Below, piece by piece: positions 30,730 through 50,041 of a DNA stretch of 64,000 nt. Every line of letters begins with the position of its first letter. The first letter of the stretch is position 1. The stretch comes from Candidatus Heimdallarchaeota archaeon (GTDB taxonomy: Archaea; Asgardarchaeota; Heimdallarchaeia; Hodarchaeales; Hodarchaeaceae): positions 1,829,435 to 1,893,434 of the forward strand of contig CP070695.1 of assembly GCA_020353515.1 (NCBI GenBank), written 5' to 3'. The notes under the pieces are model-generated. The model was not told where the DNA came from, searched no databases, and worked only from the letters and a program-made list of their open reading frames with translations. The position numbers and the translations under genes were made by a program.

Positions 30730-31914
30730 ATGAATAAACAACAAACTCGGAAAACAGTATTACGGAGAATAAGATCTTATCTACGAAAACATCCTGAGGA
30801 ATTAAAGGGAGTACGAAACATTCAGAAAAATCGCTTAGATGGATTAATAAAACGGCTAGATGAGTTTTCACCGATTGAAACATTACGCTGGAATGTTCCA
30901 GACAGAAAACTTTTTCGAGACATCGCATTGGCTGCGGGGATTCAATTCGTCCGGGAATACCCCATGTTGTATCATACTCCCAATTCATTAAGGGCCTGTT
31001 TTGGAATGCCAACTAGGACAGATCGAAAAAAAGGACGATTTTCATCCATCTTCTATCGGAATGAGGCTGTCGAAAGGCAATTACGTCCACGGATTGAAGA
31101 TATAGAAAACTTACAGAGCCAAGTAAATCAAAAACGTGACGGCCAATTCTCAAATGAAATCGAAATCTTAAATCGTTATATTAAGCGAGCCATCAATCGG
31201 AGGTATGTTGATGATATTCTTGAGATTCCTGAGAGTGACCATTCTGAAAAGAGTATTTCCAATTTACGCAGATTTTTGGAGAAACATGGATTCGAGGATT
31301 TAAAAGAGGCTACTGATGTATCAGAAGAACATCTTCAAGATCTTGATGGAATTATCTTAGCACCCGACATGATAAGCCAGTGGAAAGGAAGAGAGTGTTG
31401 GATTGAGCTCAAAGAGTATCACGAGCTGAAATTTAACTTCAAAGTAGTATTTCAAGTTTTTCGTTATCTCTATCAAAATCCCTTTGTCTTACTAATTTCT
31501 ACTTCTCCACTTCCTAGCTTCACTCAACTACTTGATCAGAAGATATGGACAACAAAGACATTACAAGAATGGGCCCTTCAAAAACAAGATGAATTACAGG
31601 ATCGTATATCAGGATGGAATGAAATTCGAAGTACGTATGTCGCTTTAGGTAGGAAACTAAAATTGAATCCTCGGTTTGAGACTTTATTTCTTGTCTTAAC
31701 GAATGAAATAGTAATTAATGAGATTGGTTTGGCAGGAACAGAATTAAAAGGGATCGAAAAGTTTTTAGACCTAGTAAGTCATTTTAAAGGGGAAATAACT
31801 ATCTGTAGCTTTGATGAATTTGTGGAAAATGATCAAATTCCTACAAACTATTGTCTACTTATGAAAATGGATTTCCCTTTTGAGTTCAAATACGATTCAT
31901 CAGACAAGAATTAA
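30730..31914 (+). CDS. Hypothetical protein with a PD-(D/E)xK nuclease-like motif
   Basis: APD(213)...WIELK(226-228)...QVFRY(242-246); basic N-terminal half. Confidence 0.55.
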   Translation: MNKQQTRKTVLRRIRSYLRKHPEELKGVRNIQKNRLDGLIKRLDEFSPIETLRWNVPDRKLFRDIALAAGIQFVREYPMLYHTPNSLRACFGMPTRTDRKKGRFSSIFYRNEAVERQLRPRIEDIENLQSQVNQKRDGQFSNEIEILNRYIKRAINRRYVDDILEIPESDHSEKSISNLRRFLEKHGFEDLKEATDVSEEHLQDLDGIILAPDMISQWKGRECWIELKEYHELKFNFKVVFQVFRYLYQNPFVLLISTSPLPSFTQLLDQKIWTTKTLQEWALQKQDELQDRISGWNEIRSTYVALGRKLKLNPRFETLFLVLTNEIVINEIGLAGTELKGIEKFLDLVSHFKGEITICSFDEFVENDQIPTNYCLLMKMDFPFEFKYDSSDKN

Positions 31915-32684
31915 ACTAAAGAAAAGACGTAAGGCCCCCCAAAACTTGGCCAGATGAATAATAGACCAAAGATAATAACAAAAATTCCTGTCATAATCTC
32001 AACAATCCGAAATCTCTCTGCAAGTAATGTAGCAGCCCGAATTCTTGCCTCAGCTGTAACCAAAACTAAAATAAAGTAGGGAACGAGTAATCCAAGAGCA
32101 AAAAGGCCCATTCCTATGAATAGATAAAGGGGATTTCCAATAAGAGGAATAATTGACAATAATATAAGAAACACCGGGAACGCACAAGGTAACGCAATAA
32201 AAGTATACCCAAAACCAATCAGGAATAGGTCTAAATGGCGATATTCCTCCCGTTGGAAAGAATTAGTCACTCTTTGGGGGATAGGAATACGTGCAAAAGT
32301 TAATTCAGCTAAAATTGGAAATATAAGGAACATCCCCATTACAATTAATATCAAACCTAAAATAAAAGTGAGTTCGATGAATATCTCACTAAGGAATGAT
32401 CCTAAGTTAGTCCAGATATAAGCTGAAATCAGGATAGCCAGAAAGAACGTTATTAGAATACCACTGGTTAACAAAATGACCCATTGAAAAGCCATTCTTC
32501 GATTAGGGTATTGTTCCTGTCCCGAATCATCAGTAGTTGGCTTATTCATTATACGAAAAACTGTTAGTGGCATAATAGGAAAAAGACATGGGGATAACGC
32601 TACGTACAAGCCCACTAAGAAGAACAGAGGAAGACCAATCGATTCATCAAAAGGAATCCCGAAAATTTCCATATACGAGGTCAC
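31911..32684 (-). CDS. ccdA: CcdA/DsbD-beta transmembrane thiol-disulfide electron transporter
   Basis: SPCLFP and LPCAFP Cys pair, about 7 TM segments. Confidence 0.85.
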   Translation of the reverse strand: MTSYMEIFGIPFDESIGLPLFFLVGLYVALSPCLFPIMPLTVFRIMNKPTTDDSGQEQYPNRRMAFQWVILLTSGILITFFLAILISAYIWTNLGSFLSEIFIELTFILGLILIVMGMFLIFPILAELTFARIPIPQRVTNSFQREEYRHLDLFLIGFGYTFIALPCAFPVFLILLSIIPLIGNPLYLFIGMGLFALGLLVPYFILVLVTAEARIRAATLLAERFRIVEIMTGIFVIIFGLLFIWPSFGGPYVFSLV

Positions 32685-32687
32685 TCT

Positions 32688-33347
32688 TTAGCCTGAGGTT
32701 ATCCAATCTACCAAAGTGTCGTAGAAGACAACGCCCTGGTTAATTTGTTTCAGTTTCCCAGCGGAATTAATAAATGCTACGGTTGGTATTGAAGTGGCAG
32801 AGAATTTTTCTTTTCCAGCTTGGGTTGTATCACGACCTACAGTCCATGTAATTCCATTGTCGTTTTTATACTCTGTTAATTTGCTTATAGAATCATATGA
32901 TGGATCAATAGAAACAGAAACAATTTCAACACTGGGGTAATTCATACGCAATGTTTTTAGCTCACCTATCTGAGTTTTACAAGGCACGCACCATGTTGCC
33001 ATAAGATCAAGGATGATTGGTTTACCTGCATAATCAGACAACATAACCATTTCTCCATTTAATAATTCAAAAGAGAAATTTAACTTGTCAGAGATATTGC
33101 CTTCTGTAGGATTCGATTGTGCCAGCTGATAATTCCCTAAAGAAAAGACACCTAGAGAAATTATTGATAAAAATGCAAAAGCCAGAATAATTTTTGTAAT
33201 TGGAATTGACGAGGAGGTAGAAGACATTTTCTGTTGTTTACCTTGGATTGAATCGATGGAGGAGATGATGTCCGATACTTTTTTACTCTCAGACATCTCG
33301 AGCTCTTTAGACTGCTTTTGGGGAATTTTTATAGTACGTCTTGCCAT
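32688..33347 (-). CDS. Membrane-anchored TlpA/ResA thioredoxin-like protein
   Basis: One TM, GKPIILD.MATWCVPC, SIPT cis-Pro loop; co-oriented with ccdA. Confidence 0.88.
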   Translation of the reverse strand: MARRTIKIPQKQSKELEMSESKKVSDIISSIDSIQGKQQKMSSTSSSIPITKIILAFAFLSIISLGVFSLGNYQLAQSNPTEGNISDKLNFSFELLNGEMVMLSDYAGKPIILDLMATWCVPCKTQIGELKTLRMNYPSVEIVSVSIDPSYDSISKLTEYKNDNGITWTVGRDTTQAGKEKFSATSIPTVAFINSAGKLKQINQGVVFYDTLVDWITSG

Positions 33348-33581: not shown

Positions 33582-35597
33582 ATGAGAAAGTATTGCATAA
33601 CTCATCTCACTCTAATATTAATACTCCTCATGTTAATTTTTCCAAGCAGGGATATTCTAACTGAATCTAATCTTCAAAATTCCAAAATAACTGACAATAA
33701 TGATTCTTCTTTGTATAAACCTTCTCTAGAACTTCAACAAGCATCTAATCCAGAGGAAACTATCTTACCTAAAACTAACCTAACGGTAAATAGTTATCGC
33801 GATACGAATCCTCAGAATACTTTTAATGCTACAGTTTTATCGTTAAATAGAACTCATTGGTTTATTCATTGCGATTATACATTCCTTCTTTTAGATGACA
33901 TATCGTGCGATTCAGTTGTGGATCGAGTGAGTTTTAATCATGGGTATAACGCAAGCAATTACTGGGAGTGGCACGGTCAACCAAGTCCATCATTCGATTT
34001 CTGGATAGATACAACTGGTTTTGATGATGATTACCAATTTGTTGTGGGTGAATATATTGCAACTGTTTCTTCTGACGTAATATATATGGCCAACATTGAT
34101 CAGGAATTTAGTGCTTGGAAAATTACAATTAATGTAGGAATAATAGTTACTATATGGTATGCTGCTGATAATGGTTTATTCCTTTGTATGAAGGAAGACT
34201 ATGTGGCAAACATTTGGTGGTACAATTTAACAAGAGCAGAAATCGCTCAGACACCTCACGATTATGTTGGTCCATTTCTGTTTCAAATATCTCATAGTAA
34301 TAATTCAAGATTGGCTTCAAATACATTGATCTCTATTGAATTAACCTCTCCTTATGGTATTGATGTAATCTATTATCACTGGGATGACAATTCCAATTCG
34401 ACAACCCTTTCAGCTTTTATCATTGTAAATTTACCTGAAGAAAATAAGTCTCATGATTTAATTATTATAGCATTTGATAATGTCGGTTACCAGAGTTTTT
34501 ATCATTTAATTTATACAACAGATAATACATTACCAGGTATCTCGTTAATTAACCAGCGAAACAATTCGAAAATCAGAGGTTCAACTCATATTCAGTTACA
34601 AATCTCTTCTGGTAATGGAACTATATTCTATCGATGGGATGGAGGAAATAATGGAACAATTGATGAGGGCACTTATATATTAGTTCCAAATCCCGATTTG
34701 GAAATTTCTCATTCTCTAGATGTCTATGTGAGAGGTTCTACTGGATTATGGGCTCATTCTAGTTTTTCTTGGATTGTGGATAATAGTCCTCCCTTAATTT
34801 CCTGTAATTTTGAAAATAACTCGATTATTAAGGGAAATATCAAGATTATTGTTTTTTCTTCAGAAGATATTAACTTAACATATAGATTAATAAACACTGA
34901 AAATCGAAGTGTTTTAATAAATACTGGTCAAAACCATACGATTTCTTATTCAAATCTAATTAATGGTAGTTATCAGCTATTTATTATTGGTTCAGATGAA
35001 GCTCACAACATTGCTTCCATTACTCTAATATTTTCAGTTTATACAAGTGCATTTAATTGGAATTGGGGATTAGAAGCGAAAATACCACGAACAATCAGAA
35101 TTATTGACGCCTCAAGTGACCTTTGGTTCATTCTTACCTTAACTTCAGCAATTGATCAATCCTTCAACCTTACGGTCTTATCAAAGGATTTGTATCCTGT
35201 AAAAAATGATATGATAGAATACGTGATAGAATTCAATTGTGAGAAACCAGATGATATAATTTTTATTAGTTTGACCCTCCAATTGAGTTCTAATAATAGA
35301 GTGGTCCCTGTGTATCAATGGGTACATTGGGATGTTGAATCAGAAGGATGGGTAAATATCACAACCTCATATAATGAGGTATCGAATAGTTGGGAAGCAA
35401 CATATAATGGGTTTGTTCTCTATTTTGCTTTAATAAATCAAGGAATTAAAACAACCCTTACCTCAGTAACTCCTGGAGGAGGTCAGATTCCTTCGTTTGA
35501 AATTATTCCAGCTATTATGTCATTAATCATGGTTTCAACCTTTGTTTTCAATAAAAGGAGAATGAAGAAGAACTCAAAACGTCTCGGACTGAATTGA
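33582..35597 (+). CDS. Secreted Ig-like-repeat surface glycoprotein with a PGF/PEF-CTERM-like anchor (IPSFE-TM-basic)
   Basis: Signal peptide; three Y.WD...D.. / DN..P.I beta-sandwich repeats; many N-x-S/T sequons; Thr-rich linker, IPSFE, TM, KRRMKK. Confidence 0.75.
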   Translation: MRKYCITHLTLILILLMLIFPSRDILTESNLQNSKITDNNDSSLYKPSLELQQASNPEETILPKTNLTVNSYRDTNPQNTFNATVLSLNRTHWFIHCDYTFLLLDDISCDSVVDRVSFNHGYNASNYWEWHGQPSPSFDFWIDTTGFDDDYQFVVGEYIATVSSDVIYMANIDQEFSAWKITINVGIIVTIWYAADNGLFLCMKEDYVANIWWYNLTRAEIAQTPHDYVGPFLFQISHSNNSRLASNTLISIELTSPYGIDVIYYHWDDNSNSTTLSAFIIVNLPEENKSHDLIIIAFDNVGYQSFYHLIYTTDNTLPGISLINQRNNSKIRGSTHIQLQISSGNGTIFYRWDGGNNGTIDEGTYILVPNPDLEISHSLDVYVRGSTGLWAHSSFSWIVDNSPPLISCNFENNSIIKGNIKIIVFSSEDINLTYRLINTENRSVLINTGQNHTISYSNLINGSYQLFIIGSDEAHNIASITLIFSVYTSAFNWNWGLEAKIPRTIRIIDASSDLWFILTLTSAIDQSFNLTVLSKDLYPVKNDMIEYVIEFNCEKPDDIIFISLTLQLSSNNRVVPVYQWVHWDVESEGWVNITTSYNEVSNSWEATYNGFVLYFALINQGIKTTLTSVTPGGGQIPSFEIIPAIMSLIMVSTFVFNKRRMKKNSKRLGLN

Positions 35598-35598
35598 A

Positions 35599-37296
35599 AT
35601 GAGCTACAAAGATCCGCCTTCGGACCTCCTAATTGTGAATCAGGACAAAGTTATCTTCAGTTCTGGGATGGGAAAGTTGACAAGACATCCAGAGATTTCA
35701 GCCACTCTTGCTAATGTACTAACTCTCTTCTCTCAAAGAATTCTAAAAGGAGAACATATCGATTCAATTCGTTTTGATAACCACCTGATGGTATTTTTAC
35801 CTTCTCAAAATCCTAATTTTCCAGAACTTGCTGCAGTAGTACTAGTTCCAATCGAAGTAAGTGCAAAACATGTTCTTCCTGGTATGAGAATCATCCTTAA
35901 TTTAATGGAAGAATATTTGCTAGGTAAAATTTACGATGCTAAGCTTCCCCAGTTAGATTGCTTCAATAGAGTCATTAACTTTCCTTCTCAGGCGATTTTC
36001 CTTTTACCAAAAACTGCTGAAGGAGTTCGCTCAGCTCTTGTGCTTTTAGCTTGTTTTGCCCACGATTTTCAGCTTGGTCTTGAGAAAATAACATCCAGGA
36101 TGTTCTTGGTTCGAGACGATGATTATTTATCTCTTGAAAATATTATTGAGAAAGTTGACAATCTTGGAGTCTTGTCTTTTTTTCCTCTTCCAAGCCATTT
36201 AAAGAAACCCTTGAATAAATTCTGTGAAATTGGTCACAAAACACCCACGCGTCAGTTTTTTTCAGCTTTTCCTGACGAAAAACCATTCCAAACATTTGCT
36301 AGACTCGCTGGGTCAAATTCGAATGCGTTTAAAATGAAAACCTTCATTGAAAATGACGAAGCATTAGAAATTATGCAATCAATCGCTTCTTTAAATAAAG
36401 TATATGATGTTTATGTACGGAATGAGATTCTCCAAGCCACAGTATTGAATCCAGGTCGGGATATCGTAACGACATTATCTTCCCCTCTTTTAAAGAAGAT
36501 GATGCAAATAGCAGAACAGAAAGAAGTTACCCACCCCCAAATTACAACTCAATATCGAGATTTAGATCAGGTTGACGGATTTGTTGAGCTAAAAAATGTC
36601 AACAGGGTCTATAAAATCGGAAATCAACAGATATTTGCCTTAAAGAATTTATCTTTGGATTTATCGGGTGGCCAACTTGTAGTGGTCCTAGGTCCATCGG
36701 GATCAGGTAAAACCACCCTTTTAAATGTCATAGGAGGGATTGACAAATGTGAGGGGACAATTAGAGTAGGTGATATTGAAGTCACAAAACTAAGCAAAGG
36801 AAAACTGACAAAATATCGACGGGAGAAGTGTGGGTTTATCTTTCAGTTCTTTAACCTGATACCTGTTCTAACAGCCATTGAGAATATTGAATATGCGGTA
36901 GATCTCTCTAAAAGTAGGAAGATGTCGAAGAACGAAGTAAGAACAAAGACAGAGGAATATGTTAAGAAAATTGGATTATGGGAGAAAAGGTTCCTATTCC
37001 CCTCTCAACTCTCTGGAGGAGAACAACAACAGGTAGCTGCTGCACGTGCGTTTGCTAAGGAACCAGAAATACTACTATGTGATGAACCAACAGGAGAACT
37101 TTCGGTAAAAGAAGGCAAGAAGGTATTAGCGGTCATTCAAGGAATAATTAAAGAGAGACCAAATATGTTAGTGATACTCGTCACTCATAATCAGAAGATA
37201 GCTTTAATTGGACATAAAGTTATTAGATTACGCTCTGGTAAAGTCGATTCTATTGAAACACAAATGCCAACTCCTGCAGAGAATATTACATGGTGA
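35599..37296 (+). CDS. Fusion protein: about 327-aa N-terminal longin/DENN-like region plus LolD/MacB-type ABC ATPase
   Basis: C-terminal [33 protein letters not shown]. The ATPase call is firm; the N-terminal fold call is from pattern only. Confidence 0.8.
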
Positions 37297-37303
37297 TAGA
37301 AAC

Positions 37304-39841
37304 TTGGCTAAAACGGCTAAAAATATATTTCGTGCTTTGAAAGCTCACAAAGTTCGTTTCTTTACAATTGCATTAGTTATTGCTATAGGAATCACATCAT
37401 TTAATGGAATGATCACTGCTTTCGTGCTTATGACAAGAACGTATAACCAAGCATTCACGGACCACAATATGGCTAGTTTCACAATGTTAACAGCAAATCC
37501 AGGGGGTTCTGGTGAAGATGCTTGGATTGATTATAATAATCTTACAACCTACATGGATGAATTTATGACCCTGGACGAAGGATCTGCAGTTATTGGATAT
37601 GAATTAAGGATCGTTTATGATACAATATTTGAGATCCGAGGTACTCGTCAAAATGGTCGAATTGTCGCATATACTACTGTTGATGAGAATGGAGACTATC
37701 GAGAACCTGATGTAAATGGCTTTAAAATAATGGATGGAGAACCATTTTCAGAGACAAGCCAGTACAGAAATGTTTGCCTTGTTGAGATACACCTAGCAAC
37801 ATATTGGAAGCTGAAACAGCACGAATTTATCGCAGTCGGAGATGATAATACACCCTTTGAAGTACAAGGAACCGTTGGTTCACCAGAGTACCTGATTAAT
37901 ATGGGATCCTACGCGGATATTATGCCAAGTCCCCGACGTTTTGGTGTTATTTATCTACCTTTAAGGACAGCTCAACGATTATTAAATGTTCCAGGAAAAG
38001 TAAATGAGATTTCTGTGTTACTTGGTACTGACCTCTTTACCCGCCAACGAGAAGCAATTGCGGATGATCTTCAGGACTTTCTAGAAGAGACTCATGATTT
38101 AAAGTTAAGTGATCCTATCGATAGAGACAAACAAGCCGCTTATTATGTGCTCAAATTAGATATTGAAGAGGCTAGGGAATTTGGTTATGTATTACCAGCA
38201 ATCATTCTGGTGATGGCGATGGGAGGATTATATGTGCTGTTAGGGAGAATGGTTGTCGCAGAAAGAAAAGATATTGGTGTCGCTCAAGCTCTGGGTTATA
38301 GTCGGAGAACGATAATCCTTCAGTATCTAGGTATTGCCATGGTTGTAGCCATTATCGGGACTATTTTGGGAACGATACTAGGTTTAGTATTTCTAGAGTG
38401 GTTTGGCCCCCTCTATACTCAAATGCTAACAATACCTTTTGACCCGAAAGTTACAATTGAATGGCCTATCATTATAGTAGGAGTTTTATTAGGTCTTCTT
38501 ACAGGATTCATTGGAGGATATATGCCCATTCGGGGAGCTATTCAACCTCTTCCTGCAGAAAGTCTTCGTTTTGATCCATCACTCCATATCACGACCGGAC
38601 GCGTACCATTCATGGAACGAATATTAAATAAACTAGGAATACATCTGAGAGTCACTGGTTACAAAATTCCAATTAGAAACTTTTTCCGCAGCAAACGACG
38701 AACCTTTTCTTCTGTATTCGCAGTTATTGTGGCAGTTTCCTTAATTTCTATGGTATTTGGTATGATGGAATCAATGACTTATTCTTTATTTTTTCAATAT
38801 GAAGTCGCAGAAGATTGGGACCTCAGGGTTGATTATTCAGAAATTCCAATTAATGCCTCTCAGATCGCCATGGGAATTAACGACTCAATTGATGGTGTAG
38901 TAAATGTCACGTACCATCTCATTTCAGGAGCAACAGTCACCTCAGATAATTCAGACGAGAGTAAACAGGTACAATTAATAGGGATGAATGATTCGAACGG
39001 CTACACGGGACATAAATTTGAATTTGAAGATGGAGGATGGGATCCAACGGGAATTGTACTAAGTGTTCCTGTAGCTGAAAAGTTAAAAGTATGGGAAGGG
39101 GATACTGTAAGATTGGAATTACCTCGTTTAACAAACATAACAAGTACCGCTCCGTTAAGAGCTCATTTTGATATGGTCAACTTTACATTCCGTATTACTG
39201 GAATTGTTGATGAATTTAATGGACTAGTCGCCTACATGGAACTGAATAAGTTAGTTGATGTAAGTGCGTTCCCTGGCCAACCTGCGAATGTGATTTTGAT
39301 TCAAGTGGATAATCCCACCCCGAGTAAACTGGACTCAATACGTAAGGAGATTTATCAAAAGTATAGCTACAATATTCGTAATATCTTCACCAAGGAAGAG
39401 CAGAGTAGTGATTTCTTGGATCTTCTTGATTTGATTTATTTTATTATTTACATTGTAGCAGTATTTGCGGTTATACTCTCATGTTCAATCGTTTATAATA
39501 CCATTTATATTAATTTACAGGAGCAGCAAAGAGAGATAGCAACTCTATTAACTATTGGGACACCAAGTAGACGCCTTGTTCGAAATGTAACAGTGGAAAA
39601 TCTCATCATCACAATCATTGGGACAGTCTTAGGGTTAATTCTGGGCTGGATCATGTTATGGTTTTTTATGAGAGTCATTCTGGATCTAGAATTTTTCCGA
39701 GTGAAACTGTTTATGAGTAATGAAACAATTTTAATATCATTTGGACTGACATTCCTCGGTGTTTTAGTAGCTCAATTCTTCCCCTTAAGAAGAGCTTTGA
39801 ATTTAAATCTCGCAGAAGCAACAAAGGAGAGAGTGGTCTAG
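37304..39841 (+). CDS. MacB/FtsX/LolCE-type ABC permease with two fused halves
   Basis: Two TM-ECD-3TM units with coupling helices ERKDIGV..ALG and QREIATL.TIG; TTG start after GGTGA. Confidence 0.9.
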   Translation: MAKTAKNIFRALKAHKVRFFTIALVIAIGITSFNGMITAFVLMTRTYNQAFTDHNMASFTMLTANPGGSGEDAWIDYNNLTTYMDEFMTLDEGSAVIGYELRIVYDTIFEIRGTRQNGRIVAYTTVDENGDYREPDVNGFKIMDGEPFSETSQYRNVCLVEIHLATYWKLKQHEFIAVGDDNTPFEVQGTVGSPEYLINMGSYADIMPSPRRFGVIYLPLRTAQRLLNVPGKVNEISVLLGTDLFTRQREAIADDLQDFLEETHDLKLSDPIDRDKQAAYYVLKLDIEEAREFGYVLPAIILVMAMGGLYVLLGRMVVAERKDIGVAQALGYSRRTIILQYLGIAMVVAIIGTILGTILGLVFLEWFGPLYTQMLTIPFDPKVTIEWPIIIVGVLLGLLTGFIGGYMPIRGAIQPLPAESLRFDPSLHITTGRVPFMERILNKLGIHLRVTGYKIPIRNFFRSKRRTFSSVFAVIVAVSLISMVFGMMESMTYSLFFQYEVAEDWDLRVDYSEIPINASQIAMGINDSIDGVVNVTYHLISGATVTSDNSDESKQVQLIGMNDSNGYTGHKFEFEDGGWDPTGIVLSVPVAEKLKVWEGDTVRLELPRLTNITSTAPLRAHFDMVNFTFRITGIVDEFNGLVAYMELNKLVDVSAFPGQPANVILIQVDNPTPSKLDSIRKEIYQKYSYNIRNIFTKEEQSSDFLDLLDLIYFIIYIVAVFAVILSCSIVYNTIYINLQEQQREIATLLTIGTPSRRLVRNVTVENLIITIIGTVLGLILGWIMLWFFMRVILDLEFFRVKLFMSNETILISFGLTFLGVLVAQFFPLRRALNLNLAEATKERVV

Positions 39842-39854
39842 GAGGTATACTCAA

Positions 39855-40601
39855 GTGGCATTTATTACACTAGAGAACATTCAGAAGAATTATACATTAG
39901 GGGAAACAACAATTCCAGCTTTAAGAGGAATTGATGTCAATATAGAACTTGGAGAACTCGTTATTATTTTCGGTCCATCTGGAGCTGGCAAAACAACACT
40001 TTTAAACATGATTGGTGGGTTAGATGTCCCTACATCTGGGACTGTGACTGTTGGTAAAATTGCTGTCTCTAAATTGTCTGATAAGTGGTTGACAATTTAT
40101 CGTCGAAAGAAAGTTGGGGTTGTATTTCAATTTTTCAATCTAATTTCACGCCTATCCGCTTTAGAAAATGTAGAATATGCTTTAGAATTAGTAGGTGTGA
40201 AGAAAAAGTCCAATGGTGAAGTTACATTTGATTCCAAAGTGATCCGCCAAACAGCGATCGACTACCTTGATAAAGTCGGTCTTCACGATCGGATCCATCA
40301 TTTTCCTGCTCAGCTAAGTGGCGGAGAACAACAACGAGTGGCCATTGCAAGAGCGCTAGCAAAAGAACCTGAAATCTTATTAGCCGATGAACCAACTGGT
40401 AATTTAGATTTTAAGATTGGTAGACAAGTCTTGGAAATTATGGAAGCTATGACTGGAAAGAAGTTGAATCGAACTGTGATTATTGTTACCCATAATGAAG
40501 CTATCTGTCCCTTAGGGGATCGTGTGATTCGTTTATCGGATGGTAGGATAGTTGAAGATTATACACAAACTTTTACCCCTGCAAAGGAATTATATTGGTA
40601 A
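39855..40601 (+). CDS. LolD/MacB-type ABC ATPase
   Basis: GPSGAGKTT, LSGGEQQRVAIARAL, ADEPTGNLD, VTHN; SD GGAGG. Confidence 0.95.
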   Translation: MAFITLENIQKNYTLGETTIPALRGIDVNIELGELVIIFGPSGAGKTTLLNMIGGLDVPTSGTVTVGKIAVSKLSDKWLTIYRRKKVGVVFQFFNLISRLSALENVEYALELVGVKKKSNGEVTFDSKVIRQTAIDYLDKVGLHDRIHHFPAQLSGGEQQRVAIARALAKEPEILLADEPTGNLDFKIGRQVLEIMEAMTGKKLNRTVIIVTHNEAICPLGDRVIRLSDGRIVEDYTQTFTPAKELYW

Positions 40602-40947: not shown

Positions 40948-41361
40948 CTATAGTCCCTCGGGTCGCTCATCCACGATTTTAACGACTTTTGTTCCTCCTC
41001 GCATGAAGAATAATCGCTTAAAATGTGTTCCAAACTTTCTTTTTGTGCTCGAATTGTCATCATAGACTACATTAAGACCCATTATTATTTTACCAACGGT
41101 TTGACCATTGGTAAAGCTGGGAACCAAAATGAAATAAACAACTATAGTAAAAATAATCATAAGCACAAAAACTGGAAGAAGTACTTCAGTATATGCAATA
41201 TCCTCAAAGGTGGGTAATAATTGTTGCATAACAAACCAATCAATTTGGCCTAAAAAAGTAAATATTACAGCCAGAATCACTATAACTACAAGATCGATTA
41301 TGAGAGCGATTAAGCGAGGGGCAATTGGGGAGGTTTCATACTTAATTCGTTCAGTTGACAT
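40948..41361 (-). CDS. RDD family membrane protein
   Basis: RLIALIID, GQTVGK..MGL.VV. Confidence 0.85.
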   Translation of the reverse strand: MSTERIKYETSPIAPRLIALIIDLVVIVILAVIFTFLGQIDWFVMQQLLPTFEDIAYTEVLLPVFVLMIIFTIVVYFILVPSFTNGQTVGKIIMGLNVVYDDNSSTKRKFGTHFKRLFFMRGGTKVVKIVDERPEGL

Positions 41362-41528: not shown

Positions 41529-41714
41529 ATGCGAACATCAACAATAACCGTGCGACTACCGTTAAAGGTTTTACACGACATTGAAAGGCTATCAGAAGTC
41601 ACAAAATTACGGCCCTCCGTTCTCTGTGCGTATGTGCTGCAAGACAAGCTGCACGAATGGGCTCATGAATATGCAGAGAATATTTCTAAGGAGATCATCG
41701 GTGATCGCAAATGA
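41529..41714 (+). CDS. Ribbon-helix-helix (CopG/MetJ-like) DNA-binding protein
   Basis: TITVRLP beta strand, helix to L..L, S.L helix 2; SD GAGGA 8 nt before ATG 41529; ATGA overlap with the next gene. Confidence 0.7.
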   Translation: MRTSTITVRLPLKVLHDIERLSEVTKLRPSVLCAYVLQDKLHEWAHEYAENISKEIIGDRK

Positions 41715-42460
41715 TTGATGTCATACTCCGTCTAAGTGCTATGGTTAGCATGTTCTTATTTGCAGCTTTATTCCTTTACGCTGCGATAAAATTTTTTAGA
41801 ATTTGGAGAAAATTCAGGGAGGAATCTTTGTTTCATCTTGGTATGTTGAGTCTAGGCATGATCTTCTATTTTCTCATTGTATTTCTTATGGTTGCTTTAG
41901 CAGGGGATCCTGAAACGACCGTATTTTTACTTAAAAGAGTGATTGGTATTGCGTACTCGATATTATCTCTTGAAATGAGTCTATTTTATGTCACTGCTTT
42001 CACAAATAGACGTACCCTCTGGGAAAAATATATCCCGTATTTCTTTGGGATCACTACTGGAATTTCTTTTGCTATCTTAGGTATGAGGGAAACAGATCCG
42101 TGGTTTTCGGTTCTTCTATTAATTGCATACATCGCACCCTTATTCTTGATAACAATTCTTGTTGTTAGAATTGTACTTAGTTCTTATCATCTTTTACAAG
42201 ATGACCAGCTTACCCCCGAGGACCGAGGATTCATCAAAACACTTGCAGGTACAGCTTTAATCCTCTTTATTGGTGCGATAGGAGATCTTTCATTCTTTTG
42301 GGCCGTTATTCTAATCGGGGCTGATCTTTGGACTTTTATTGTGTTACTCAGTGGAATTATAACACCTTTGATACTTGTTCTATCAATTTATCTCATTAGA
42401 GCTATATTTTTAAACATTGAAGAAGCTGATATTGTCTATTTAATGAATCTCTTGAGTTAA
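41711..42460 (+). CDS. Stand-alone seven-transmembrane protein (sensor-like)
   Basis: Seven hydrophobic segments, no cytoplasmic output domain, translationally coupled to the RHH gene. Confidence 0.65.
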   Translation: MIDVILRLSAMVSMFLFAALFLYAAIKFFRIWRKFREESLFHLGMLSLGMIFYFLIVFLMVALAGDPETTVFLLKRVIGIAYSILSLEMSLFYVTAFTNRRTLWEKYIPYFFGITTGISFAILGMRETDPWFSVLLLIAYIAPLFLITILVVRIVLSSYHLLQDDQLTPEDRGFIKTLAGTALILFIGAIGDLSFFWAVILIGADLWTFIVLLSGIITPLILVLSIYLIRAIFLNIEEADIVYLMNLLS

Positions 42461-44287: not shown

Positions 44288-47200
44288 ATGCAAATCTTAA
44301 AAAAGAACCCATTGTTAATTCTAACTTTATTTATAATATTAGCTCCATTGGTAGTTGGAATACAATTTTTTGGAGATAATATGCCAATAACAATTATTGA
44401 ATCGCTAAATGAAGATAATATAGAAACTATTCCCATATTGAATGAAAGAAACGACGATATAGAGTCAATCTATGAAAAAGAATCTAGTATTTATCTGAAT
44501 AACGTCTTAGAACGCCTTAGATTAGGAGAAGAGCCAAGTACTTCAGAAAGTGTATTTCTCTCTTATTCTAATCGAATACCTGATCTACCAGAATGGGTAG
44601 AAATACAAAGGTACTTTAAACTAATCCCCTTGATACAAGTAAGTACTACTCTTGAAAATATTCCCAATCTTACAGAAATTCGTCACGTTGACGCTGTTAT
44701 CCCAGTCGGAAAAGGAGTATTAGCAAAATTATCTAGTTTTACGGAGGATTATAATCCTTACATTGGTGAATTCCCCCTTTTATTAAATGAAACTGTTTCA
44801 TTGGTTGAAGCTGAAAATGATAATACAACTGGTTCTGGTGTTATAATCGCTATATTGAGCACCGGAATTGATGAGACCCATCCAATGTTGGATGATCAGG
44901 ATGACGATTGGTCGACAACTGATGATCTTAAGATTATTGATTCATATGATGCATGGGATGGAGGTATAACTGATGATCAAAATGGCCGAGGAACTGCTCT
45001 TGCCTCAATTGTTGCTGGAACAGGTGCCGTTGGTGGTAGATTAGAGACAGAATTATCCTTTACATATCCTTATCCTTATGAGACAGATCCAGAATATGAA
45101 ACCCAAATAGTAAATACGACCATTAATATTGGGACTCAGATGGGTCTTGCGCCTGAAGCTTCTCTTTTCGATGTGAAGATTACTAATGATGCTGGTGATG
45201 CATATGACGAGGGTATAGCAATTGAAGGAATTGAATGGGCTGTTGACCATGGAGCAGATGTAATTTTGTTAGATGATCTACCTTCAGCAACTTCTGCAAT
45301 TATTTCGGTGATTGAAGCAGCTACCTCTCGAGGAGCTCTGGTAGTCGTCCCAGCTGGAGACTTTGTCCCACCAGGAGGTTATGACGATGATAACATAGCA
45401 CCCTACTATTCAATAAACTCTCCTGCTTCTGCACCTACTGCATTAACCGTGGGAGCAACCACGGAAACTAATTCGTTATGGGTACAATCTGAACGAGGTC
45501 CAGTCCCCGTAACGGAACATTCAAAACCTGATGTCGCTGCTCCAGGAGTTTTTATGTTAGGAGCAAGCATTGATTATTCAACTAGTGAAGGATCAAACCC
45601 TGATGGTTGGCAAGGAGAGCCAGGTGACATTGATGATACTCTCTATTTTGATGTCTTTTCCAGTACAGCGATGGCTGCTGCAGTTACAGCTGGTGTCACT
45701 GCGCGCTTAATAGAGGCTTATCCTGGAGCTTCAGCAACAGCCATCAAAATAGCTTTAAGAAAAGGAGCGACTGATCTTGGATTTAACGAAATGGCTCAAG
45801 GTAAAGGAAAAATAAGTTTGTCAGAAGCCCTTGATATCTTAGAGGCAGCTCCTAAAGAAGCAAACAATTTAGTAGGGAATGTGTATAAAAAGGAATTCAC
45901 GGTTCCAATGGTAAATTATACTGATTTTTCAGGGAAAAGGATCCTCATTGATGGTTCCTGGTCTACATCCCCTCTAGCTTTTCCAGGTGGAGGACCTTAC
46001 GATTGGAGTCAGCAAACAAACGGTAATCTTAGCACATTAGGCGTTACCTCAAACTGGCAACATCCTTATGATGATACTGCGAACCAGTACACTTGGTATA
46101 ATGTAAGTTATCAAGGTGCGTCACAAGTACGGATCACCCTCAATAATCTAACAGTGGCTACTGGGGATAACTTTACCATTTATCGATCTTCCACTCCAAA
46201 TGGGCCTCTTACTAGTGTTTATGGTCCAACGAGTAGTAATTTTACTGGGAGTTTCACTGATACGACTACTGATAATTACTTCTACTTTAGATGGGGTAGT
46301 AATGGAGATGGATATACGACTGGTCAGAGTGTTTTTGGAATTTATGGCTTTGTTGATCTATGGTTCTATGCTGATACTACCCAACCACCCGCAGGGACTT
46401 TTGAATTTGAAGAACTCGTTACTCAACTTATTGACCTCGGAGCTGTCGTTGAATATTGGTATGCCAATTCTGCAGATGCACCTCCTACCTCTATATTATT
46501 AGAATACTATGATATTTACTTCCTTGGACAACCACTCGCAGTTGCGACCACAGGTATTCCTGGTGAATATTATCAATGGATGAGTGGAAATTTAACGAAT
46601 TATCTGAATGCAGGTGGTCGAGTACTATTTATTGGAGACTATGAAAATCAATATTATAATGATGCGACAGAGGCTTTGGGGGTGACGTGGCACTATGGTG
46701 GTGGTGGAGGGCCAACAACTGATATTGTGAATCATGTTCTTACAACTTATCCATTTACAATTGAAGAACTTTTAATAGACGCTCCGTATGCCTATTTTAC
46801 TGGTACTGCTCCAACTCTGGTTCAAGAAGCGGGAAAAGCGACAATCAAGTATTATAACCAAAACAATGGAAAAGCTGTATTCGTTGCGGATGAGGATGTT
46901 TTCAATGATGAAATGTGGGATAATCCATTCCCAACAAACCTTAACCCAAGCCGATATAATAATTCTCAATTAGCCATGAACATTTTCTATTGGCTGAGCG
47001 ATATCAGTTATCAGTCTGGAGAACGAGATGATGGAGGTGAAGAGCATTTTGAACTCATTTCTTATGAATATCGCCCAATTATGACTGATGAAGACCTCTG
47101 GGAGGTTGAGATTGTTCTCCAAAATATTGGGAATTTCACCAGTCAAGCATGGGTAGCTTTTGGATTCGATTACACACCAACATCATACACATTAGGTTTC

Positions 47201-50041
47201 GGAGCGATTGGTAACCCAGATGGAGTAATGGATACAGCTGGAGAAGATAATGCCAATGATACGTGGCACTTTTCTATTGGAGGAGATGGGGATATCAATT
47301 CATTACAATCTAATACCACAATAGAATTCTTTTACAATATTTCAGAAAACTATCCAGTAAGTCAGATTGCAATGCCCTATATTGAGATATCTGCCTCAGG
47401 AATGAATCGAGATACAGCGGAATGCCTTCTACTCTTAAATGGTTATCAAATTGGCCCAATATATGAAACAAACACATCTACTGGTGGAACTGGAGTTATG
47501 TATTATCCTATTCACCCTATTAGCAGATTACAACAGTATAATAACACTGTAGAAATCACTGTTCCAGATTCTATCGATTTAACTTTGGAATCCTTCAGGA
47601 TTGTAGGGTACAACTTCAGTAATTCTTTAGGCACTCAACATATTGCTACATCAAATATCGCTCCTAATCAAAACGCAGCCATAACATTTCAATATACTCC
47701 CCCTGATCTAGAGGAACCTGCTTATTATGAACCTGAAATCATCTTCACACCTTATAATATGACTCATGCTCAATTCTCACCTGGATATGCATCTTCTCTC
47801 TTCAAAGAGTTGGCTTTAACCGTCGATTATGGACTCATTGATCCAGGCTATTACAACGAATTTGGCACACAAGTATACGCAATTCCTAAGACAACACGTC
47901 AAGGTGATCTTCCACTCTTGTATGACATTACCCCAGGATCTCTTAGTTCCTCTTCGAGCACTAAGATTGCACAATTCCCAGGTGACATCAGAGTCGACGG
48001 ATTAACCGTGATGAGTAGCAGAATTGTTGATGATCCAAGTTTAAGGTTATCAGGAACTATAACTTCTGTAGCAGGACTTGGAAACTATTCAGAAGCCTCA
48101 CTAGGGATAAGTTCCTATGTGTTGGCCAATTTAGCACCAGAGCTATTCTTACTAAATGATACATGGGCTTCCACAGCTCAACTAGATATGAAATACCTTA
48201 ACCATTCCTCCATTGGTCCTATCCTTCAAGTCGACATCCCTCAAACCCAGTCACCAACCACTCTTAGTGGCACTCTCTCTTTGATTTCAAATGGAACGTC
48301 GCTATATCAAATTACGCTTCAAATAACTATTAGCAATCCTATATCTTCTTTCTTGCTTCTTGATTCTCTAGATATAACACAAGATCCTGGTGGATATCTT
48401 GAGCGAGACTATGATAAACTTTGGGATCAGCTATATGAGATGTGGCAAATAGCGGTTGAAGCGGGATATGATATAGATTCCCTCACTCAAACATGGTATC
48501 TGTATGGTCACCGAACTCATGATGACAGCGTGTCTGCCGATCCTTTCGAATTTTTAGATAAACATGTTTGTAGTGTTCCTCCAGAGGAAGATCTGCCATA
48601 TGAGGGACTTATTGGTGTTGATCTAGCTGACACATTCAATCCAGGGTATTTGGATGACTACTTTACCAGGGGTGGTAATCTAATTCAGCTCGGAATAGGA
48701 GGACCAGTACCAGCTAGCGGTGATCACTTGGGACCTAATTTTATTGCTGATATTGATTATTTTGACAGAGAAGAGGAGATGACAACTCTCGTAAGTGGAA
48801 CTGATTCAATTAATCCTCTCATGGACACAGTCAATCAACTTTTCTACCTTGGTGGAGGTTACATGGTAATCGATCAGGAGAGTTACGATGATCAACTAAC
48901 TTACGATGTGATTACTGGTCAAAATTGGCTATTTAGCGGTCCCATTGTGGCACCTAATCGTGATATAGCTTTCATTTATCATGATGCTGTTTATCCTGAT
49001 CGCTTTGGGTATGATCAAGGGCAATATACCAGTCTCGCACAAACCTATAAGGGATTAAAGGTTGTGGTTGGATCAGCTAGTATGACTCAAAGTTGGTTCC
49101 TTGAACAGACTGATTATTGGGCTTATGGGTCAATGAAATACGCAGCAGATCAAAATATCATTGCAGAAGAGTTCAGTGTTAATTTAGGCAATAATAAGTT
49201 TGTTGAAAACATCTTTAGAGTCGGTGGAAATAAAGCCCCTACAATAGAGTCAATAAACATGTCAACACCTCATGTAGGACCTGGAGATTATGTAACTGTT
49301 CGAGTAAAGGTATCTGATGATCAAGAGAATCCCTCTGAGTTGACTGTTTTATGCCCAGAGAAGATAACTCCTGGAATGAACTACATAAATTGCTCCTATG
49401 ATTCCAATTCCAGCACGTTCATAGGGAGCTTTGCAGTTGTTGACACCTCCTTCATTGATTTTTGGAACATCTATGTTATTGATGATCTCTATAGGATCAC
49501 AGAAGCTGTCGATGGGGTAAAAAGATTTCTAATCCCTGAAATGAACGTAAAACCTGTTGCTTGGATTCCCTTCAATGATGAAATGAACTATTATTCAATC
49601 ATTGATGTGGAAAAGGGTGAATTACTCTCTTTTGCGTTTTATTACGATGATTTCGAAGATGGAGACGCTATTATATGCAATATAAGTTTGGTTTATTATT
49701 TCAATGAAGAAGAAACAGAAATAATAAGTTCAGAGCTTTTTGCTGGATTGGGTCAAGGTATATTCTTAGTAGATACTACTACTTTAAGGGATGGAACTCA
49801 TATAGTTTTTGCATTTGTCACAGACACAGACGGTGGTACAGCAGAATACCAATTGGCAGGATTTAACATCGGCAGAGGAACTCTCTATAAACCAAAACCA
49901 AAACCAGCAGGCATTGATCCAGTCCCAATTCTCATTGTAGGTGGTTCAACGTTAGGTCTCGCTGCAGCAGTCGGTGGTGGATGGTATTTCTTGTTACATA
50001 GACGAGGTATGGGTATCAGAGATCTTTTCCGACGAGATTAA
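44288..50041 (+). CDS. 1917-aa membrane-anchored S8 subtilase homolog with substituted catalytic residues (pseudoprotease) and GATase-like/GIFT-type accessory domains
   Basis: Subtilase scaffold G.GV.IAILSTGI, G.AP.A.L, SPA.A..A.TVGA, S.RGP, KPDV.APG, QGKG. Catalytic positions read S191, R234, D358, A461. C-terminal TM followed by RR. Confidence 0.85.
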   Translation: MQILKKNPLLILTLFIILAPLVVGIQFFGDNMPITIIESLNEDNIETIPILNERNDDIESIYEKESSIYLNNVLERLRLGEEPSTSESVFLSYSNRIPDLPEWVEIQRYFKLIPLIQVSTTLENIPNLTEIRHVDAVIPVGKGVLAKLSSFTEDYNPYIGEFPLLLNETVSLVEAENDNTTGSGVIIAILSTGIDETHPMLDDQDDDWSTTDDLKIIDSYDAWDGGITDDQNGRGTALASIVAGTGAVGGRLETELSFTYPYPYETDPEYETQIVNTTINIGTQMGLAPEASLFDVKITNDAGDAYDEGIAIEGIEWAVDHGADVILLDDLPSATSAIISVIEAATSRGALVVVPAGDFVPPGGYDDDNIAPYYSINSPASAPTALTVGATTETNSLWVQSERGPVPVTEHSKPDVAAPGVFMLGASIDYSTSEGSNPDGWQGEPGDIDDTLYFDVFSSTAMAAAVTAGVTARLIEAYPGASATAIKIALRKGATDLGFNEMAQGKGKISLSEALDILEAAPKEANNLVGNVYKKEFTVPMVNYTDFSGKRILIDGSWSTSPLAFPGGGPYDWSQQTNGNLSTLGVTSNWQHPYDDTANQYTWYNVSYQGASQVRITLNNLTVATGDNFTIYRSSTPNGPLTSVYGPTSSNFTGSFTDTTTDNYFYFRWGSNGDGYTTGQSVFGIYGFVDLWFYADTTQPPAGTFEFEELVTQLIDLGAVVEYWYANSADAPPTSILLEYYDIYFLGQPLAVATTGIPGEYYQWMSGNLTNYLNAGGRVLFIGDYENQYYNDATEALGVTWHYGGGGGPTTDIVNHVLTTYPFTIEELLIDAPYAYFTGTAPTLVQEAGKATIKYYNQNNGKAVFVADEDVFNDEMWDNPFPTNLNPSRYNNSQLAMNIFYWLSDISYQSGERDDGGEEHFELISYEYRPIMTDEDLWEVEIVLQNIGNFTSQAWVAFGFDYTPTSYTLGFGAIGNPDGVMDTAGEDNANDTWHFSIGGDGDINSLQSNTTIEFFYNISENYPVSQIAMPYIEISASGMNRDTAECLLLLNGYQIGPIYETNTSTGGTGVMYYPIHPISRLQQYNNTVEITVPDSIDLTLESFRIVGYNFSNSLGTQHIATSNIAPNQNAAITFQYTPPDLEEPAYYEPEIIFTPYNMTHAQFSPGYASSLFKELALTVDYGLIDPGYYNEFGTQVYAIPKTTRQGDLPLLYDITPGSLSSSSSTKIAQFPGDIRVDGLTVMSSRIVDDPSLRLSGTITSVAGLGNYSEASLGISSYVLANLAPELFLLNDTWASTAQLDMKYLNHSSIGPILQVDIPQTQSPTTLSGTLSLISNGTSLYQITLQITISNPISSFLLLDSLDITQDPGGYLERDYDKLWDQLYEMWQIAVEAGYDIDSLTQTWYLYGHRTHDDSVSADPFEFLDKHVCSVPPEEDLPYEGLIGVDLADTFNPGYLDDYFTRGGNLIQLGIGGPVPASGDHLGPNFIADIDYFDREEEMTTLVSGTDSINPLMDTVNQLFYLGGGYMVIDQESYDDQLTYDVITGQNWLFSGPIVAPNRDIAFIYHDAVYPDRFGYDQGQYTSLAQTYKGLKVVVGSASMTQSWFLEQTDYWAYGSMKYAADQNIIAEEFSVNLGNNKFVENIFRVGGNKAPTIESINMSTPHVGPGDYVTVRVKVSDDQENPSELTVLCPEKITPGMNYINCSYDSNSSTFIGSFAVVDTSFIDFWNIYVIDDLYRITEAVDGVKRFLIPEMNVKPVAWIPFNDEMNYYSIIDVEKGELLSFAFYYDDFEDGDAIICNISLVYYFNEEETEIISSELFAGLGQGIFLVDTTTLRDGTHIVFAFVTDTDGGTAEYQLAGFNIGRGTLYKPKPKPAGIDPVPILIVGGSTLGLAAAVGGGWYFLLHRRGMGIRDLFRRD

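Follow-up and report, generated by a model that had tools for sequence, protein, structure and literature searches.

Type VII ABC systems (MacB, LolCDE, FtsEX and YbbA-YbbP) couple ATP hydrolysis to work performed outside the membrane (bioRxiv 10.1101/2020.06.08.141481), and the MacB-family homologs of Asgard archaea are uncharacterised (PMC7997004). Longin-DENN proteins are known from Heimdallarchaea, and lineage-specific shuffling of such domains has been described in Asgard archaea (bioRxiv 10.1101/2020.10.19.343400), while GAP longins (FLCN, NPRL2, SMCR8 and Asgard look-alikes) carry a GP motif and an arginine finger (PMC12290439). Here we analysed a stretch of 64,000 nucleotides from a Candidatus Heimdallarchaeota archaeon, referred to below as the window (contig CP070695.1, positions 1,829,435 to 1,893,434), in which one gene joins a longin and a second, apparently DHH-like domain to a type VII ABC ATPase (Table 1). 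The architecture is a new arrangement of known parts, and no description of a longin, a dead DHH domain and an ABC ATPase in one protein was found in the literature searched, the coverage of which is incomplete.

Table 1. Features of the fusion gene, its operon and the conserved neighbours, in window coordinates
Feature	Coordinates	Strand	Evidence
Fusion gene, 565 aa: longin, pseudo-DHH, linker and type VII ABC ATPase (NBD1)	35599..37296	+	
Longin core, aa 1-112, last helix reaching aa 127	35599..35934	+	DSSP, VIA, HMM
Putative catalytically dead DHH-like domain with helical extension, aa 113-311, without DHHA1	35935..36531	+	VIA, parent model, motif columns
Variable linker, about 15-45 aa across homologs	36532..36579	+	
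NBD1, MacB/LolD/FtsE-like	36580..37296	+	
Double-half MacB/FtsX permease, 845 aa, 8 predicted TM segments	37304..39841	+	Pfam, hydropathy
NBD2, plain partner ATPase, canonical D-loop PTGNLD	39855..40601	+	
Surface protein, 671 aa, hydrophobic segments at N- and C-terminus	33582..35597	+	hydropathy
RDD membrane protein	40948..41361	-	
CcdA/DsbD-TM and TlpA-like thioredoxin genes, conserved neighbours	31911..33347	-	

The fusion gene is the second in a tight run of genes for the surface protein, the fusion, the permease and the plain NBD. As the original prediction had stated, it is a single uninterrupted reading frame with about 327 residues ahead of the NBD, which starts at about residue 328, and all the peptides quoted in that prediction were found in it; the junction is likewise free of methionine, with none between residue 303 and the NBD, M301-M302 lying within the last helix of the module. 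The surface-protein gene opens the operon in fused and unfused genomes alike, while the RDD gene, which in unfused genomes separates the surface gene from NBD1, is found here downstream on the opposite strand. Two genes without a Pfam match, for a 394-aa soluble protein (30730-31914) and a 249-aa membrane protein (41711-42460), stand beside the operon throughout the genus. Elsewhere in the window (44288-50041), a 1917-aa secreted protein appears by inspection to begin with a subtilase-like part and to be anchored in the membrane at its C-terminus.

The locus shares with type VII systems a LolD/MacB/FtsE-like NBD and a permease with two MacB_PCD and FtsX halves and eight TM segments, the permease matching PF02687 twice and PF12704 twice and thus having both the FtsX fold and the MacB-like extracytoplasmic domain. 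Unlike the known systems, it has two unequal NBD genes, one of them with the 327-aa N-terminal module and an Asp-to-Ser change in the D-loop, and it stays below every equivalog cut-off, NBD1 reaching none of those for LolD, MacB or FtsE (LolD, 164.7 vs 307.75; FtsE, 155.3 vs 264.85). Walker A, the Q-loop, LSGGEQ, the Walker B Asp-Glu and the switch His are all intact in NBD1, in line with the predicted retention of Walker A/B and the switch His. The small deviations noted alongside them are present too, but they are not a consequence of the fusion: the D-loop reads PTGELS, with Ser for Asp, in 10 of 10 unfused orthologues as well, so that it belongs to the unequal NBD pair, and the QQQV position is Q or R among fused copies. 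The ABC operon is present throughout the genus. The genome itself encodes 24 LolD-type NBDs, 16 of which form 8 neighbouring pairs, and since one member is markedly longer (278-608 aa) in 7 of these 8, an accessory segment on one of the two subunits is the usual arrangement here. Two more extended LolD-type ATPases (G000 C1:3014269-3016089 and 2064242-2066065) have 387-aa soluble N-terminal regions that belong to no known family and are 21% identical to each other, and each has a plain NBD as its partner, with a large permease alongside.

Searches of JGI, NCBI, ENA and Logan yielded about 20 further clusters of fused sequences (61-87% identity), the homologs carrying the names Hodarchaeota or Hodarchaeales. 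Together with eight fused genomes, these clusters from four sources rule out an assembly chimera or a singleton, and the predicted fusion to a MacB/LolD-type NBD is therefore genuine and conserved. Among 22 genomes of the genus, the gene is fused in 8 (G015 included), split in 2 (G009 and G012), reduced to a 60-aa module remnant in 1 (G019) and a plain ATPase in 10, with G021 left unclassed. Given the plain, split and remnant copies, the add-on is optional: it is confined to part of one Hodarchaeales genus and is dispensable. In G015, a 70%-complete scaffold, the fusion gene stands 2 Mb from the rest of the permease and NBD2 (L021:8009-9769, L149:8003-9879), by rearrangement or mis-scaffolding. 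The G017 permease gene (L152:1450-4008) contains one in-frame TGA, either a real stop or a sequence error.

An AF2 model built on 33 homologs (pLDDT 90.5) supported the longin that had been read from the order of predicted strands and helices. Within the longin (residues 5-127), DSSP placed beta1-beta2-alpha1-beta3-beta4-beta5-alpha2-alpha3 at residues 9-127, with no leading helix, which is the element order of known longins. In VIA the longin matched 5ldd (Z 10.9, rmsd 2.9, 97 aligned), tied with roadblocks at Z 11.0; Mon1-Ccz1, MglB and roadblocks all matched at Z 10-11, and Foldseek added MON1A (E 5e-4). The fold is shared at Z 9-11 with longins (Mon1/Ccz1, Fuzzy/Inturned, TRAPP, sigma-adaptin and VAMP7) and with permuted roadblocks (MglB and LAMTOR), but unlike in these proteins the longin is single-copy and joined to a pseudo-DHH domain and an ATPase. 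A longin profile (HMM) also picked up a standalone 145-aa longin-like ORF in the same genome (E 2.4e-6). By inspection, the GP motif before strand 2 is absent, the beta1-beta2 loop reading NQDK, and there is no Arg in the beta4-beta5 loop, which we take to be the position of the arginine finger. Judged by the published hallmarks (PMC12290439), the label of GAP longin does not fit, and the fusion further differs from known longins in the erosion of a patch conserved in its parent.

The alpha/beta segment and helices that follow had been likened to the cDENN core; they match DHH-family structures instead. In VIA, residues ~106-312 matched RecJ-Cdc45, GAN, RecJ, NrnA-type enzymes and Cdc45 at Z 7.2-9.7, including 7e15_D (Z 9.7, rmsd 3.6, 166 aligned) and 7bhi (Z 9.7, rmsd 5.6, 175 aligned). 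At least 10 DHH-family entries stand among the VIA matches listed for the module, and DHH-family chains rank first in both structure searches for residues 113-311. The strongest argument came from the parent protein, a Hodarchaeales scaffold protein: when its matching part and C-terminus were modelled together, nearly all of the best 50 Foldseek rows were DHH/DHHA1 (best E 1.7e-6), and the alignments continued through the DHHA1 domain to model residue ~370. Because DHHA1 thus follows right after DHH in the parent, as in RecJ and NrnA, domain 2 is most probably derived from DHH. It has the DHH core and helical extension of the DHH/DHHA1 family (RecJ, GAN, RecJ-Cdc45, Cdc45, NrnA and GdpP), and like Cdc45 it would be catalytically dead. 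Unlike the enzymes, the fusion lacks the metal-binding motifs (DxD, D, DHH, D), the equivalent positions, mapped by strand order, reading PKTAEG, SFFP and IGH; it also lacks DHHA1, in the place of which it has the NBD. H213 occurs in 11 of 22 fused copies and in no parent. Similarity at the sequence level was not detected: three shallow Hodarchaeales DHH families, compared with domain 2 by hhalign, gave probabilities below 1%, Pfam, NCBIfam, PDB sequence and ESM Atlas feature searches with the module returned nothing usable (the first 327 aa have no Pfam family), and the ESM Atlas structure rows all had TM <0.5 by query. Residues 113-311 probably adopt the DHH (RecJ/Cdc45/NrnA) fold, an assignment at the level of fold only.

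DENN proteins (DENND1, FLCN, C9orf72/SMCR8 and the Asgard longin-DENN proteins) have in common with the fusion an N-terminal longin, the place of uDENN, followed by an alpha/beta unit and helices; they differ from it in this second unit, which in the fusion matches DHH structures. DENND10 (8p0v_M) did appear in Foldseek (E 1.5e-3), but with rmsd 19 and TM 0.21, and no DENN chain stood among the VIA matches listed, at Z >=7.2 for the module and Z >=5.5 for the later domains of the parent. The Pfam DENN profile matched 0 of 33 homologs, but PF02141 is too insensitive here, since none of 301 Asgard genomes gives a hit above its cut-off. Apparently, a longin with a dead DHH domain can pass for DENN when judged by sequence pattern.

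The parent protein (536-675 aa; G000 C1:2590548-2592548 = L017:10549-12549) consists of the longin, the dead DHH domain, an acidic Pro-rich linker, DHHA1 and a P-loop-kinase-like domain; in the model its last 95 residues are similar to the P-loop fold of T4 polynucleotide kinase (Z 7.8), and it ends GIGFSRW. Its longin and pseudo-DHH domain are 44% (own genome) to 60% (P0022) identical to those of the fusion, which ends in the NBD where the parent has its three further segments. The parent gene was found in 24 of 24 genomes of the order searched, and nothing above marginal scores was found in 376 other Asgard genomes. In 19 of 22 genus genomes it belongs to a run that also holds gelsolin-like, Rab-like, MglA-like and Sua5 genes, and follows the MglA-like GTPase gene at a distance of about 1.5 kb on its downstream side. 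The P0022 lineage has this neighbour too, and in G022 such a gene is less than 4 kb away; the more distant parents (G023 and P0043) are not beside GTPase genes. The parent protein appears a better candidate GTPase regulator than the fusion. The gelsolin-repeat protein, Rab-like GTPase (C1:2588480-2589019) and 250-aa MglA-like GTPase (C1:2589058-2589810) of this run (L017:7517-9811) are 83-98% identical in the genus, and in G022 a roadblock-like gene stands ahead of the run (L018:1-306).

In the tree, every fused or split module falls into a single clade (100/98), whose sister is P0022 (100/97) and which stands apart from the parents of the host genus, which rules out a recent duplication of the host's own parent gene. 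In the NBD tree a single clade of fused copies was not rejected (p-AU 0.38), and split and remnant copies grouped with the fused ones. The gene order is surface-RDD-plain NBD1-permease-NBD2 in the 10 unfused genomes and surface-RDD-fusion-permease-NBD2 in P0021, an intermediate layout. As shown by trees and gene order, the module appears to have entered an existing type VII ABC operon once, coming either by transfer from a P0022-like lineage or from an old duplication with losses. In G009 and G012, from two related lineages, the gene is split at A8-A11 runs within the linker, where the fusion described here has no A-run, and the split is present in seven non-identical sequences. The five split copies with DNA need a -1 shift in four cases and a +1 shift in one, as read from the assembled sequences, and would fit slipped-strand mutation. 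In the split genomes no stop interrupts the shifted frame of the linker between the A-run and the NBD; therefore, slippage could still give a fused protein. Close strains (L178, L179, L181, L183 and L026) carry A8-A11 frameshifts in different frames, possibly through slippage or phase variation that alternates fused and free module.

The dN/dS ratios of the two parts of the module were 0.06-0.17 and 0.07-0.14, against 0.04-0.09 for NBD1, rough values with dS near saturation. They are close to those of the NBD and permease and below that of the surface protein (dS partly saturated), which suggests purifying selection on both parts. Split lineages also conserve the module (dN/dS 0.16-0.19), while G019 has lost it; selection therefore shows that the module matters, without showing the same for its attachment. 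Among nine genome pairs, which are not independent, the dN of the fused longin was 1.6-2.8 times that of the parent in all nine, while that of the DHH-like part was lower in the fusion in eight. R63 is found in 22 of 22 parents and 11 of 14 distant homologs but in only 7 of 22 fused or split copies, this protein having L63; H55, present in 21 of 22 parents, is not the commonest residue in the fusion copies, and Q15, K32 and Q91 are likewise conserved in parents and vary in the fusion. These substitutions and the faster change of the longin suggest that the parent's longin interface was relaxed after the fusion.

Taken together, we favour, with chances that we put at about even, a model in which the module, a candidate for partner binding, serves one of two unequal ATPase subunits as a tether that is optional and has no catalytic role. 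From the architecture, NBD1 and NBD2 would pair under the double-half permease, and by the mechanics known for the family their ATP-driven closing would drive mechanical work at the membrane's outer face, where the substrates handled are probably envelope proteins, as the neighbouring genes suggest. The 310-aa add-on, the front half of the scaffold protein placed ahead of NBD1 on a variable linker and devoid of a catalytic site, would position the ABC machine or bring a cytoplasmic partner, and the pseudo-DHH surface would be at least as likely as the longin to make that contact. The fold assignments, purifying selection, single origin, P0021 layout, optional status, slower change of the DHH-like part beside a faster longin, and one-sided NBD extensions argue for this model, which is weakened by the assignment of DHH from fold only (Z 9-10, rmsd 3.6-5.6) with no profile-profile match, and by a selection signal that speaks for the module but not for its attachment.

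Alternatively, the module may do a job of its own, duplicating the front half of the scaffold, the link being nearly neutral and conferring only co-expression or membrane proximity, a possible but somewhat unlikely explanation. The 10 genus genomes without the module, the split at A-runs in at least two lineages and deletion in one, the conservation of the module even when split, and a linker varying in length and sequence would all fit, but the reading frame is maintained in about 20 fused clusters with identities as low as 61%, the open linker of the split genomes could allow a fused product by slippage, and one-NBD add-ons recur in the same genome.

It is doubtful that the longin docks a small GTPase, MglA-like or Rab-like as among the parent's neighbours, to switch or position the ABC machine without DENN. 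Its closest folds include MglB, Mon1-Ccz1 and Fuzzy, the parent neighbourhood described above is consistent with such docking, and a rough pattern count gave about 43 small-GTPase-like ORFs in the genome. However, none of the loci surveyed around fused operons contains a GTPase gene, erosion of the R63 patch argues against retained docking, the motifs of GAP longins are missing, the distant parents lack GTPase neighbours, and the NBD1/NBD2 pair offers a single longin, whereas MglB and Mon1-Ccz1 act as dimers. The direct coupling to small GTPases put forward in the original prediction draws on the parent's neighbours, while the fused longin itself has lost the parent-invariant residues. Also unlikely is the fuller scheme in which the module is a GTPase platform taken from a scaffold encoded beside Rab/MglA-like genes, a GTPase gates or positions an envelope ABC mechanotransducer in a lineage near to eukaryotes, and poly-A slippage toggles fused and free forms in some lineages.

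We consider it highly unlikely that the pseudo-DHH domain has kept the ability to bind a nucleotide or oligonucleotide and regulates the ATPase allosterically. The ligands of DHH/DHHA1 enzymes include pAp, c-di-AMP, nanoRNA and ssDNA, according to the titles of the structure matches, and the DHH-like part is the better conserved part of the fused module; however, DHHA1, which forms half of the substrate cleft in these enzymes, is absent, no metal-binding Asp/His set is left, and many of the invariant residues are common to P0022 and so predate the fusion. A true tripartite DENN (uDENN-cDENN-dDENN) acting as a Rab GEF is scarcely credible, for although the domain order, the DENND10 match and the longin-DENN proteins of Heimdallarchaea would fit it, that match superposes poorly, DHH-family chains lead both searches, and DHHA1 stands behind domain 2 in the parent.

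In Hodarchaeales, the fused ATPase thus combines a trafficking fold regarded as a eukaryotic signature with an envelope machine of prokaryotic type, a combination apparently undescribed, although its weight is limited by the known domain shuffling in Asgard archaea and by the optional nature of the add-on, which is restricted to part of one genus. The steps by which the fusion arose and decayed can be followed from plain operon through insertion and fusion to split and remnant. If a small GTPase does bind the module, a prokaryotic membrane transporter would be under direct GTPase control.
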